The position numbers and the translations under genes were made by a program. Source: Hormiphora californensis (taxonomy: Eukaryota; Animalia; Ctenophora). From it: a DNA stretch of 64,000 nucleotides. Each line of letters opens with the position of its first letter. Within the stretch, counting starts at the first letter, position 1. The notes below the pieces were generated by a model, which ran no database searches, had not been told where the DNA came from, and saw only the letters and a program-made list of their open reading frames with translations. Positions 7,826-64,000 of this stretch are shown piece by piece. The stretch lies in assembly GCA_020137815.1 (NCBI GenBank), contig CM035353.1, positions 1,364,001 through 1,428,000 of the forward strand. The letters are read 5' to 3'.

Positions 7826-10800
7826 CTACTTTTTAGGGGTTGGAAGACCTCGTTTTGGTGCAGGCTTCTTCATCCCAGTAGCAGGTTTCTTCTTCAAGCC
7901 CTTACTGGGGGACTTCTCTCTCGAGTCATCAGAACTAGTCCTCCCCCCATCTAGTGAACTCTTGCTGGAACTCTTAGTAGGGCTGACACCCTTCTTAGAT
8001 TGGTCTGGAGGGTTAGATTGGGTGGCGGTGACAGCTTGTTTCTTCACCTCTTCTTCTGCACGTTGTTGAGGGGCCGATAGTTGTGGTGCCAGGGCCTTCT
8101 TGGGAGGGAGCAGGTTTTGTGCAGGGGGAGGAGAGGGAGAGGAACCAGCTGGTTTTTTGGTTAGCAGTGAGTTGAAGAAATTTGATAGGACACTATCGGA
8201 GGGAGGGGGAGTTTTCGTTGTCTTTCCTTCCTCTTCCAATACCTGCAATGGAGGTCTAGTTTAGGGAGAGGAGGAGAGAGAGAGAGAGAGAGAGAGAGAG
8301 AGAGAGAGAGAGAGAGAGAGAGAGAGAGAGAGAGAGAGAGAGAGAGAGAGAGAGAGAGAGAGAGAGAGAGAGAGAGAGAGATAAAGAAATATATCATGGA
8401 TAGCAATGATACACATACCTTATGCGGTGTAGCAGGGAGATCCGACCTTCTGTTTGTCTATCAGAACTGCTTGCATTCTTGCCAGGAACAATTGGTCATC
8501 CTCTAGCCTTCATCACCGCTTCTGCCGGGTCTCAGGAAGGGCACAATATCTGCTTCTGTATAGGGTTTATCCGCCGAGAACTTGAGTGTGAAACCTGTGA
8601 GAGAGAAGGAGGGTAAATAGTAGGGAATGTGAGAATAGTCCTGAAACATGGAGAAAGACAGGGAGAGGAGATAACTTCCTATTGAAACTTGACACCGCTA
8701 AATATCACTCTCTCTCTCCACACCCCACGGCCCACACTGTGTAGTGTGTACATGTGTAGAACAGTACTGTAATTGTACTGGGAAGTGCCTCTAATTATTA
8801 ATTAGGGGCAATTAATATTAATTATTTTACACCCGTACCTTCATTTAACAGCTCCATCTTTGTTGCATTGTCCCAACCAATAGGAACAAAAACAGCATCT
8901 CTATCAATCACCTGAAACAACGCAAAGAGTGTGCTGTGTAGTTGAGATACTTATTAAATCTAGGTAATAGGTATTAACTATTGGGGGGGGGGGGCAGCCC
9001 CAAAAAATGGCAACATTTTTCCGAAACACAGGGTATGGTTGATTATTAAATACTGAATACAACCACCTATATTAACCTGGGGCTCTCCAGCGAACTTCTT
9101 ATCCATCAGCACGTGGGACATATAATCCAGGAGTAGTTTAGTATTGCTGTTATGAAGTGGCGAAGTGTACAGGAGGCCTGCTCCGTAGGACAGGAGACAG
9201 TGCCTCAAATACCACTGGATGTATTCAAAGTGTTCCTCGGTAAAGTCGTTCTCTTTTTGTAGTTTGGACATGGAATCAACCTGTGCAGGGGGTGAAAGTT
9301 GGTAACCATGCTGGCGGAGATAGATATATATAGATCACTAATCACTGCAGTAGGAGAACTAAACAACGTTGGGCAACGTTGGGCCCTCCCTAACTAACGT
9401 AACACAAGCGACATCGTGAGAGGACAGCGCAGGAGAGAAATGAGGGGATATCATACCCAAAAGGAGGTGTATTTCAGACAGTTACCGACCGAATCAGGAA
9501 ATACTGGTCCCTGATTGGCTGATAACCAGTCACGTGACCTAAATAACGAGTTCTGATTGGCTCCTGGTTCTGATTGGTTCCTGGTATGGTTACCTTGGTG
9601 ACAGCGACAATAATGGAAACCCCTAAATTGGTGGTCAGTGCCCCTGTAGGTAGTGGCATACCGCCACTGTCCTCTACTTGTAAACATGCCCTGAACCTCG
9701 CCTCAACACCACTCTTTAGCACTGCCATCTCTTCCGGGGGGATCTGGGGGGTGAGGGGTAGATAATAACAGGGGGATCTGGGGGGTGAGGGGTAGATATA
9801 ATAACAGGGGGATCTGGGGGGTGAGGGGTAGATAATAAGATAGGGGGGGGGGGGTGAAGGGTAGATATAATAACAGGGGGGATCTGGGGGGTGAGGGGTA
9901 GATAATAAGATAGGGGGGATCTGGGGGGTGAGGAGTAGATAATAAGATAGGGGGCGGGGGGGGGGGTGAAGGGTAGATATAATAACAGGGGGGATCTGGG
10001 GGGTGAGGGGTAGATAATAAGATAGGGGGGATCTGGGGGGTGAGGGGTAGATAATAAGATAGGGGGGATCTGGGGGGTGAGGGGTAGAGGGAGATCTGGG
10101 GGGGGGGGGGTGAGGGGTAGATAATAAGATAGGGGGGGTGAGGGGTAGATAATAAGATAGGGGGGTGAGGGGTAGATAGACAGAGGAGGGGTGGTGAGGG
10201 GTAGATAGAAAGAGGAGGGGTGGTGGTAGAGGGATGGGGTGGGGGTGAGGGGGGTGGTGAGGGGTAGAGGGAGATCTGGGGGGTGAGGGGATTTCTTTAC
10301 TAGTTCTATTCACTATTCAGAGAGAGAAATTAAGTCACAATGAGCGTGATGCTACTACAAATAAAGTCATCGTACTGTATGACATGACGTACTACTACAC
10401 ACATGCAGGAACCGACCGAATCAGGAAATACTGGTCTCTGATTGGCTGATAACTAGTCACGTGACCTAAATAACGAGTTCTAATTGGTTGTTTACTTGTG
10501 TCGGTCGGTTCCTGCACACATGCGTGCTACATTACCTGAAGACTCTTAATGTGATTATCAATGATGTTAATCCACCCATGTAACTCATCCTCTAATCTCC
10601 ACGGCTCATCCATTGGAATTGTAATTACCACCAGGGTATCAGATAGCCGCTCTCTTGTGAGTACATGGGGAACAAACTCCTTGTAACTTGCACTGTACAC
10701 CTTCAATCGGTCTGAGCTCTCTTTCTCATCGTCTCTTACAGTCAGGTAACTGAGAGGAAGAGAGTTAAGAGTGGGGAGTATGCCTGTGGGGAGGGGGAAT

Positions 10801-11272
10801 GTATTCATGGAAACGATTGAACGGATGAAATAGAGAAATAGAAGGGAATGTAAAATATCTAAACATAGCCTGTAACAGCCTGTCAACTTACTTGAATTCA
10901 AGGCCAGGTGTAGAGGTAACGAAATCCTTCGAATCAGACATTTTGTTAATAAGAGTTGATTTTCCAGATTGGGGAGGTCCGAGGAAGGCGACATACTTGT
11001 TACCTGGAGGGGGGTGTACTGTTTAGTCGCGAGGGGGGGGGGGTGTGTGCACACTGTGCACACGTGTGTAGTCGCACTGAGTATGGGAAATACATGGGAC
11101 TTGGGAAAATAGATAGATAGGCGGGGGGGGGGGGGGGAGAGAGAGAGAGAGAGAGAGAGAGAGAGAGAGAGAGAGAGAGAGAGAGAGAGAGAGATAACGT
11201 ACATCGTGTGGAGGTCTGGGACTGTAGTGAGCTTAGGAGATCCGCCCAAATGTCTTCTTTCTCAGGCGCCAT
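7826..11272 (-). CDS. DYNC1LI: Cytoplasmic dynein 1 light intermediate chain (8 exons)
   Basis: Exons 11272-11203, 11003-10892 (P-loop GPPQSGKS), 10749-10536 (DTLVVITIPMDEPW), 9743-9594 (IPPEEM..LTTNLG), 9280-9077 (EHFEYIQ..YGAGLLYTS), 8911-8839 (DRDAVFVPIGWDN), 8594-8419 (EDDQLFL, with apparent indel errors), 8242-7826 (VLSNFFNSLL helix). GT-AG introns, phases consistent. Confidence 0.9.
9479..9583 (+). mobile_element. Rearranged copy of the 109-bp MITE ~10 bp from a DLIC splice donor
   Basis: Core sequence matches 597-705. Ends are altered and no TSD was found. Confidence 0.75.
9736..10290 (-). repeat. Tandem array of the DLIC exon-4 acceptor region (TACCCCTCACCCCCCAG|ATCCCCC)
   Basis: About 10 copies of CCCCAG|ATC units (~35-37 bp) extending upstream into the intron from the used acceptor at 9743. 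Confidence 0.85.
10406..10514 (+). mobile_element. 109-bp hAT-type MITE in DLIC intron 3
   Basis: Same TIRs, TSD CACACATG. Confidence 0.9.
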
Positions 11273-63000: not shown

Positions 63001-63866
63001 AGGAAAGGGATGCTTTATGTGTGTTTACCATCCAAATGGTAAACACATAATGCATAATATGTAATGAAACTATAGGGGGGGGGGGCACGGTAAACACATA
63101 ATGCATATATATATATATACATATTGAAACTAGGGGGCACACGTACATATGGCATATTGTTGTAAAAGTCAGAAGATCCAGCACAGAGATATCGACCCAA
63201 CAGCGTGGCATGGGTGGTGAAAATAGTACCAATGGGTAAACCTGTAGGTGGGGGAGCGGTGTGATGACAAGCAACAAACACAGCAAGCCCTTACTTTCGA
63301 TATATTGCAATGGATATCTTATAACTGGCACTGTCCACGGTGGTCACTCAAACTTTATTGAAAGTTGTGTGACGTTGGGTGACCGCCGCGTGGACTGTTA
63401 TACAAACTATACAGAACTAAATCAGCTTTTTTTCTTTGGAATCCAGCCAAAATCAGGGAACCCATGGACTTTTTAGGGCTGGATCCCATCACTATATATT
63501 GTTATATTTTTAGGGCTGGATCCCATCATTTTAGGGCTGGTCGACCCCATCATTATATTGTTACATGGCTGATTACCTCTAGTTCGTGACAGGACACATG
63601 CTATCCCAGCCTGCCACTCGTGGAAATGAGCTGTTGTCCTGTTAGAGGGAGACCTACACGAAAACTGAAATAATACTCTATTAAATGGGATCATATGATT
63701 CTCTACAATGTGGATACATTTCTCCAACTAATTAAAGTGAATTAATACCTCTCCCAGAAACCAGCAGATAAGTTCCCCAAACATGACCGCATTTACACTC
63801 TCCTTGTCCGACTCTGGTACATTGATGTGGGTGACATTCCAAAAGTCGGACATCCACTCGGAATAC
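51059..63866 (-). CDS. GYS: Glycogen synthase (GT3), 5' part outside the window
   Basis: Exons 63866-63749, 63664-63577 (HFHEW), 63241-63147 ([13 protein letters not shown]), 60258-60074 (TPNGLNV), 59833-59705, 59286-59189 ([15 protein letters not shown]), 58999-58861, 58631-58442 (LPPIVTHN), 57899-57755 ([15 protein letters not shown]), 53105-52992, 52890-52652 ([20 protein letters not shown]), 51184-51059 ([18 protein letters not shown]). Confidence 0.97.
51355..52600. repeat. 18-bp minisatellite (AATTCCCTTACTCAAT/C) split by a Helitron
   Basis: Copies at 51355-51417 and 52019-52600. Confidence 0.92.
51418..52018 (-). mobile_element. Non-autonomous Helitron (601 bp)
   Basis: Minus strand: A|TC 5' end, 3' hairpin TTCGCCC-GTA-GGGCGAA then CTAG|T. 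Inserted at AT with no TSD, and removing it restores the 18-bp unit. Confidence 0.8.
53532..54112. repeat. Perfect inverted duplication, 284-bp arms with a 12-bp spacer
   Basis: ATATTCAGAG...GATGAAGTGA mirrored by TCACTTCATC...CTCTGAATAT. Confidence 0.9.
55795..55858 (+). mobile_element. 5'-truncated copy of the 109-bp MITE
   Basis: ATAACCAGTCACGTGACCTAAATAACGAG...TCGGTCGGTTCC. Confidence 0.8.
57140..57788 (-). repeat. Array of glycogen synthase exon 3' end plus donor (7 extra copies)
   Basis: TGGGGATACACTCCCGCTGAGTGCACCGTAATGG|GTTAGT repeated with variable intronic tails. Confidence 0.93.
57864..58250 (-). repeat. 56-bp array of glycogen synthase acceptor plus exon 5' end (6 extra copies)
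   Basis: AATCCCTATCCAATTTGCAG|GTGGTGTATCAYCCMGAGTTCCTATCATCCACCTCT. Confidence 0.95.
58634..58785. repeat. 35-bp array abutting the acceptor at 58631
   Basis: About 4 copies of GTAAGGACCAGGTTAGGTTAGGTTGTAAGGGGGTT. Confidence 0.85.
60303..61150. repeat. 12-bp minisatellite (GAGAGGTGGTTA)n just upstream of the acceptor at 60258
   Basis: Read directly. The sense strand unit TAACCACCTCTC forms CTAAC across unit junctions. Confidence 0.93.
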
Positions 63867-64000
63867 CTGTAAGAGAAACGTAGAGCTTAGTTTTAGAATA
63901 TCTGTAAGAGAAACATAGAGCTTAGTTTTAGAATATCTGTAAGAGAAACATAGAGCTTAGTTTTAGAATATCTGTAAGAGAAACATAGAGCTTAGTTTTA
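63861..64000 (-). repeat. 35-bp array of glycogen synthase acceptor plus first exon bases (runs off the window)
   Basis: AAAACTAAGCTCTATGTTTCTCTTACAG|ATATTCT, with 4 acceptors visible including the used one. Confidence 0.9.

Follow-up and report, generated by a model that had tools for sequence, protein, structure and literature searches.

Intronic copies of exon edges in a likely ctenophore: mirage minisatellites whose common variants are synonymous, probably through exchange with the working exon

Why should copies of an exon edge, lying within an intron, vary in the reading frame of their host gene? This question is raised by a 64-kb stretch of DNA (hereafter the window), in which we modelled four genes by hand, namely DLIC, Rho, Prdx6, and glycogen synthase (GYS), and in which an exon edge together with its splice site has repeatedly been copied into the adjacent intron. 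We regard these arrays as “mirage” minisatellites, as known from amphioxus, whose common variants are probably silent due to two-way misaligned recombination with a working exon under selection. Exchange with the working exon, in either direction, is well supported, and the pattern can be explained without assigning any function to the copies.

For a survey of the splice junctions, a 14-nt word (8+6 nt) across each of the 82 modelled junctions was used, and copies were sought within up to 2.5 kb in the adjacent intron. The junction word was found copied at six of them, namely DLIC 9743, Prdx6 24565, and GYS 45215, 57755, 57899, and 63866, four of which are acceptors; at all six, the repeat unit spans the exon-intron boundary and duplicates the splice site. 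Five are tandem arrays with head-to-tail, minisatellite-sized units (35–70 nt). A preliminary description of this DNA had reported such copying at the same six positions in three unrelated genes, with arrays at each. All six coordinates proved to be real junctions and the genes can be given as DLIC, Prdx6, and GYS, its “GYS-tail” being part of GYS, but the acceptor of the GYS tail exon (45063–45215, minus strand) has only a single displaced copy (45405–45432, minus strand), which lies at a distance of 199 nt from the real acceptor and includes 10 exon bases, and was not counted as a mirage array. Codon position is informative in two arrays only, those of Prdx6 and GYS 57899.

In Prdx6, the working copy of exon 4 (24497–24565, plus strand) is followed by 44 spare copies of its 3′ end and donor (24566–26734, plus strand), arranged in units of 52, 50, and 40 nt with one of 49 nt. 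Each of the three unit joins lies at a microhomology, i.e., a short word common to the intron start and the exon. Since the array contains an exact 698-nt repeat of 24566–25263 at 25316–26013 (plus strand), which may represent a recent higher-order duplication or an assembly overlap, the 44 copies may be 30. Five common variant alleles were detected at four third positions (matching 24540, 24549, 24552, and 24564), all of them synonymous, and they survive removal of the exact repeat. Non-synonymous variants amount to three, each going back to a single event, namely GGT>TGT (two copies, one event duplicated), GCC>ACC (one copy), and GTC>GCC (one copy); one more silent change lies in the irregular 49-nt unit, and one column differs solely owing to the 50-nt join. 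All 44 spare donors are unchanged across 7 nt. At least four combinations of states were found for five of the six site pairs, including all four for sites 3 nt apart, which suggests an old, much-recombined array.

In GYS, a catalytic-domain exon (57755–57899, minus strand) carries arrays on both flanks. Its acceptor is preceded by six spare copies of 56 nt each (20 intron and about 35 exon bases; 57900–58249, minus strand), in which all exon differences are synonymous. Five of these are common (57897, 57888, 57885, 57876, and 57873; 5/5 synonymous, as in Prdx6), and a sixth silent difference, TCG/TCT, lies on the unit junction and was excluded from the test. That all 10 common variants, with five transversions among their changes, are synonymous has a probability of 6e-6 given their transition/transversion class, and of 1e-4 on a conservative count with four Prdx6 sites and the fully linked GYS pair counted once. 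Expressed as diversity, third positions reached 0.179 in Prdx6 and 0.217 in GYS, compared to 0.004 and 0, respectively, for first and second positions. Single-event variants are mostly non-synonymous (3/3 or 3/4), as neutral mutation predicts, so that common and rare variants differ (Fisher P 0.018–0.048). In addition, copies match the exon more often where the shared sequence beyond the site is longer (rho 0.96; within-array permutation P 0.0009, conservatively 0.007; invariant sites excluded, trend noticed ahead of testing), as is predicted by crossover geometry. Altogether, frame-respecting variation is statistically firm in the two arrays. Every codon variant listed in the preliminary description for Prdx6 and GYS is present; its statement that recurrent differences are third-position synonymous changes holds for the common variants of these two arrays, while the three non-synonymous variants of Prdx6 had been missed.

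The other three arrays contribute less to the codon signal. In DLIC, the exon with the copied acceptor (9594–9743, minus strand) scored 18.6 bits in Pfam, slightly below the cut-off of 19.7, with both neighbouring exons passing, and it adjoins a G-rich array with a unit of about 37 nt and nine spare acceptors, each followed by 7–8 exon bases (9744–10276, minus strand). At GYS 63866, the exon (63749–63866, minus strand), the first base of which completes a codon split by the intron, adjoins at least three spare acceptors in 35-nt units with six exon bases (63867–64000, minus strand), the array being cut by the window end. The copies at both places hold next to no information on codon position. 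The first exon base of the 63866 copies is A instead of G, and this is the third base of the split codon, which encodes arginine in both ctenophore orthologues; the change is thus probably silent, as judged from these orthologues, the upstream exon lying beyond the window. At GYS donor 57755, we found seven full spare copies of the exon end and donor, one without its GT, and one decayed copy (57086–57754, minus strand). The conserved GYS protein results from the innermost acceptor and donor of exon 57755–57899.

Spare sites were tested for the first five of the 44 Prdx6 copies and for all six GYS copies, and all 11 led to a frameshift or stop; therefore, the array copies are not coding. The unit lengths also shift the reading frame. 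Translation of the copies by read-through or by use of a spare site was considered and rejected on the same grounds. For Prdx6, four of 22 listed sequencing runs were examined across 24465–24580, the DNA run X5 and the RNA-type runs X8, X12, and X22. RNA contigs of X8 and X12 lead from exon 3 via exon 4 to exon 5 and leave exon 4 at 24565, the most upstream of the identical donors. Normal splicing was hence seen in the two of the three RNA-type runs that yielded a contig, with contigs representing the major form only and Prdx6 being the only one of the six junctions covered; X22 yielded no contig on exon 4, which is no proof of absence. Run X5, whose sample and study label differ from those of the best-matching runs, revealed the 40- and 50-nt joins as well as unit-sized contigs with three differences, and its depth summed to about 29,000 on the Prdx6 unit compared to about 700–1,100 on the unique exon part, values that do not give a copy number. 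Therefore, neither the Prdx6 array nor its variation is confined to the assembly. Exon 4 itself is polymorphic, with four listed single-nucleotide polymorphisms (SNPs; 24519, 24525, 24528, and 24532), all synonymous; listed differences all lie at least 30 bases from the piece ends, and nearer ones, including those at array-variable sites, were counted but remain unnamed.

Array turnover was simulated with 20 units of 33 nt in a haploid Wright-Fisher model with selection on the first unit only and a fixed copy number, using 3–20 seeds; arrays sampled within one run are not independent. Low exchange rates resulted in no silent bias in any model, and a closed array gave the pattern in 0/280, 0/200, and 0/225 simulated arrays. 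Two-way exchange at equilibrium (about 13,000 times the mutation rate) led to a diversity of 0.161 at third positions (pi3) and 0.0145 at first and second positions (pi12); common variants numbered 4.8 (silent) and 0.6 (non-silent). Four or more silent common variants, with no non-silent one beside them, were present in 40% of 225 arrays. With one-way flow at equilibrium, the latter pattern occurred in 0/225 arrays and in 0–7% of 280 arrays of other runs, with ratios near 2–4. A young array fed one-way from an exon pool with a pi3 of 0.09 revealed at least three silent and no non-silent common variants, which is a weaker criterion, in 10–20% of 200 arrays, with more variation near the junction early on; in an early one-way run with a single seed, 45% of the arrays showed this weaker pattern. 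The two mechanisms proposed in the preliminary description, an archive of exon versions and cycling of the copies through the functional position, thus both survive, while a closed neutral array does not.

Two-way exchange is our first choice and a one-way archive the second. In the proposed scheme, slippage between short matching words of exon and intron start would duplicate a junction, the anatomy of which is seen at the three Prdx6 joins. The site nearest the exon body would be used, leaving the mRNA normal and the array tolerated, as is visible in the major Prdx6 transcripts and presumably holds elsewhere. Copies would then be shuffled on a fine scale, as documented by the four combinations at sites 3 nt apart. 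The working exon would form one end of the array and take part in the shuffling, so that protein-changing entries would be lost, the exon would repeatedly pass protein-compatible sequence back to the copies, and silent variation would drift across all of them.

Several observations weigh against two-way exchange. The model requires exchange to outpace point mutation by a factor of about 10,000, a rate that was assumed, at a fixed copy number; its third-to-other ratio was 11 (6 in shorter runs and 27 in one higher-rate run) compared to 44 observed, and at equilibrium it did not reproduce the match gradient (0.59, 0.59, and 0.61). No array variant was seen in the working exon of this animal in the four runs at 24465–24580. 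X12 has the state of the window's exon at each of the four array-variable sites, and for X8 the difference is at most one unnamed base. This likeness has a rough probability of 0.04 under random drawing of exon states from the array, a weak argument, as contigs show majority paths. Conversely, the exon SNPs within the copied segment (24525, 24528, and 24532) are carried by 0/25, 0/25, and 0/44 copies, respectively. The seven full copies at GYS donor 57755 are invariant across about 35 exon bases, so that this array varies nowhere there, and in amphioxus the copies of globin BflGb6 differ from the exon at many silent sites, yet also at several non-synonymous ones and by a stop (PMC3087553, supplement 4).

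Part of this evidence fits an archive, in which copies would have been seeded from different exon alleles or at different times and would seldom flow back, so that the array samples the silent polymorphism of a very diverse species. The high polymorphism of exon 4 with its silent SNPs, the resemblance of both RNA alleles to the exon of the window, and the GYS copies, which at distal sites are unlike the exon in all or most copies, are in line with it, as are the young one-way arrays of the simulations with their early variation near the junction. High heterozygosity has also been described for another ctenophore (PMC8527503). Against an archive stand the scarcity of the pattern in equilibrium one-way runs with their low ratios and the four-way shuffling at sites 3 nt apart, which suggests an old array rather than a young one. 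Moreover, unequal crossover is reciprocal by nature. We consider an archive rather unlikely, though still the most serious competitor.

An artefact of assembly or polishing, with reads of other alleles mis-mapped onto the copies or copies multiplied by the assembler, is brought to mind by a stretch of raw-read quality in the window (38100–42700 vs. 44200–47900) and by the exact 698-nt repeat; reads were checked for the Prdx6 array only, and the end of the Prdx6 exon with its donor, used as a motif, had 0 matches in metagenome contigs. However, X5 displayed an excess of depth on the unit, two of the joins (as loose ends), and contigs from inside the array with three differences; in addition, variants remained after removal of the exact repeat and joins lie at microhomologies, making an artefact very improbable. 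Selection on the copies themselves, whether as alternative ends of the exon, as splicing signals, or as regulated decoys that lead to nonsense-mediated decay, could account for the perfectly kept donors (44/44 in Prdx6), and in human CBS and IFI 6-16 two pseudo-sites are in use (PMC1557585). But translation cannot conserve codons where all tested spare sites break the frame, both RNA contigs use the first donor, and a decoy or enhancer role gives no cause to respect the host frame, so that we give this explanation hardly any weight. Chance, or hypermutability of a few sites within an array that is closed and neutral, has in its favour that only 10 variants are at hand, from two arrays picked for their striking look, two of the GYS variants being fully linked; given the conservative probability, the same pattern in two genes, the five transversions, and closed simulations that never reproduced it, this is the least credible explanation of all.

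Arrays of this anatomy have been described before, although the preliminary description did not recognise a matching system. In amphioxus, mirage minisatellites were reported for Adh3, the globins BflGb6 and BflGb9, troponin C, and PGBD5 (PMC3087553; PMC3902484). As here, their units extend across the boundary of exon and intron, at donors or acceptors, with lengths in an overlapping range (10–160 nt), several genes are affected, the mRNA is normal, and copies show concerted evolution. In contrast, the arrays of this study have up to 44 copies, four silent sites recombining within one array, and a clean split into common silent and single non-silent variants, and their host is likely a ctenophore, so that mirages on the donor and acceptor side are extended to a likely member of that group. 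Inspection by eye of supplement 4 of PMC3087553 revealed that the first 25 exon bases of BflGb6 are alike in all copies, that differences grow with distance, and that copies are unlike the exon largely at silent sites, the same tendency as here, which goes unremarked there. The working alleles of BflGb6 differ at five silent sites, and at all five the state of one allele occurs in copies of the other haplotype (PMC3087553). In the main text of that paper, the terms “synonymous” and “gene conversion” occur 0 times, and mirage origin and turnover are called unclear. A literature search for silent-only variation among such copies found none, though the founding amphioxus paper and Zhuo 2007 may discuss it.

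Human donor-spanning minisatellites (variable number tandem repeats) are known from F7 intron 7 (37 nt), CBS intron 13, LMNB2, PDGF, and IFI 6-16 (PMC1557585). In these minisatellites, the first unit spans the donor and is followed by 4–25 identical pseudo-donors; the most upstream donor alone is used in F7, LMNB2, and PDGF, for F7 by a scanning-type rule (PMC1557585), and the same choice of the most upstream donor was found in Prdx6. The spliceosome was previously said to ignore dozens of decoys; in X8 and X12 only the first donor is indeed used, and in the human cases this is explained by preference for the most upstream site. The finding is not a new splicing device. Unlike here, the four exon bases of the F7 unit do not suffice for a codon signal, human diversity is low, and four of our six junctions are acceptors.

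In the Rogers model of intron gain (see Zhuo et al. 2007, as cited in PMC3087553), an AG|GT segment is duplicated in tandem. The model shares with our arrays the tandem duplication of sequence with splice signals, but each of our units has either a donor or an acceptor, and neither an intron nor an exon has newly arisen. In-frame excision of the duplication by a copied donor and acceptor does not apply, with one site type per unit and all 11 tested sites breaking the frame. Silent gene-conversion cassettes, such as chicken Ig pseudo-V genes or Neisseria pilS, are likewise unexpressed partial copies exchanging with one expressed copy. Those cassettes store amino-acid diversity for a purpose, whereas the arrays of this study lie in housekeeping genes and 0/10 common variants change the protein.

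If two-way exchange is correct, a mirage array and its exon might be seen as one gene pool, in which selection on one copy keeps non-coding copies compatible with the protein. It is also conceivable, if speculative, that arrays act as reservoirs raising silent diversity at exon edges several-fold (0.157 compared to 0.017 in the simulations), and that coding constraint thereby extends to intron DNA genome-wide in hyper-diverse marine animals. Two-way exchange would offer an uncomplicated example from nature of how purifying selection indirectly reaches non-coding copies. It would also entail locally inflated synonymous diversity, spurious SNP calls at the edges of exons, and a slight mutational load on housekeeping genes. 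Silent-only common variants would mark the participation of the working exon in the turnover, and the silent/non-silent spectrum among copies would measure the ectopic exchange rate per locus, making the question of origin and turnover measurable.

Concerning recurrence, the Tandem Repeats Finder list was merged by hand into 23 arrays with units of at least 10 nt, of which 20 remained after three intergenic ones were dropped. Exon edges are overlapped by 5/20 arrays compared to 2.95 expected (P 0.13), and 12/20 lie within 50 nt of an edge compared to 6.8 (P 0.002), with a rough null for array placement. Without the noisy duplicate and one coding-like repeat, overlap was 5/18 vs. 2.5 (P 0.08), and 12/18 lay within 50 nt (P 0.0006). 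Nine of the twelve near arrays are at acceptors. Thus, arrays lean to exon edges, and overlap itself did not significantly exceed chance, so that enrichment at splice sites, a test of which had been proposed earlier, was not significant within the window. Recurrence at junctions is largely expected from dense repeats in short introns, the median intron length being about 240 nt (n=41) with one quarter of intron bases within tandem arrays. A copy was found less often for junction 14-mers (6/82) than for random intron 14-mers (95/400; 9/400 outside arrays), the comparison being base-weighted. Six further arrays end 1–45 nt before an acceptor without including its AG (22209, 46317, 47378, 48080, 58633, and 60304) and appear to derive from the branch region or the pyrimidine tract. 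A 16-nt array at 52018–52586 was tried as a seventh case and rejected, as it has a donor-like word and no exon sequence; together with 51356–51417, it appears as one array split by a 600-nt insert, with a donor-like word per unit on the gene strand.

As to the genes themselves, DLIC, glycogen synthase, and the 1-Cys peroxiredoxin Prdx6 are supported by Pfam, and Rho was identified by its translation, a single exon tried against Pfam giving no match. Exons of the catalytic part of GYS match Bolinopsis and Mnemiopsis proteins by 51–97%, mostly more than lancelet or hemichordate proteins. The gene extends about 600 residues past the usual C-terminus as a repetitive, charged tail (30205–51184, minus strand) common to the Bolinopsis and Mnemiopsis GYS proteins, and this long tail, down to about 30200, is matched by these two only in comparison with lancelet and hemichordate. 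Based on the matches of both parts to two ctenophore proteins, the host is likely a ctenophore. The frame of GYS exon 63577–63653 (minus strand) fits no nearby acceptor, possibly owing to a one-base assembly error. Within a modelled GYS intron, a repeat of 30 nt whose frame stays open for at least 167 codons (48990–49490, minus strand) may be an alternative exon or nested gene, and at 56270–56605 (plus strand), opposite GYS, an acceptor-like word occurs three times and may be a further mirage in a putative nested gene. The region 38100–42750 repeats 44200–47930 with 75–79% identity and many gaps, includes decayed copies of GYS tail exons, and looks like a raw long read inserted in the assembly; 14100–15900 and 18900–19900 also appear noisy by eye.

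Other repeats include two arrays with a 31-nt unit in opposite orientation (1482–2509 and 3964–6247), which lie on either side of a 1.45-kb core, an arrangement resembling a foldback element whose arms are tandem repeats. Near-perfect palindromes were found in introns at 27026–28578 (98%), 53532–54112 (98%), and 31460–34091 (93% arms), and six copies of about 110 nt with inverted ends resemble miniature inverted-repeat transposable elements (598–708, 9484–9586, 10407–10514, 11537–11639, 12324–12431, and 55795–55859). Finally, an open frame of 737 codons without introns lies at 16411–18621 (minus strand), which is cysteine-rich and, by eye, LDL-receptor-like.

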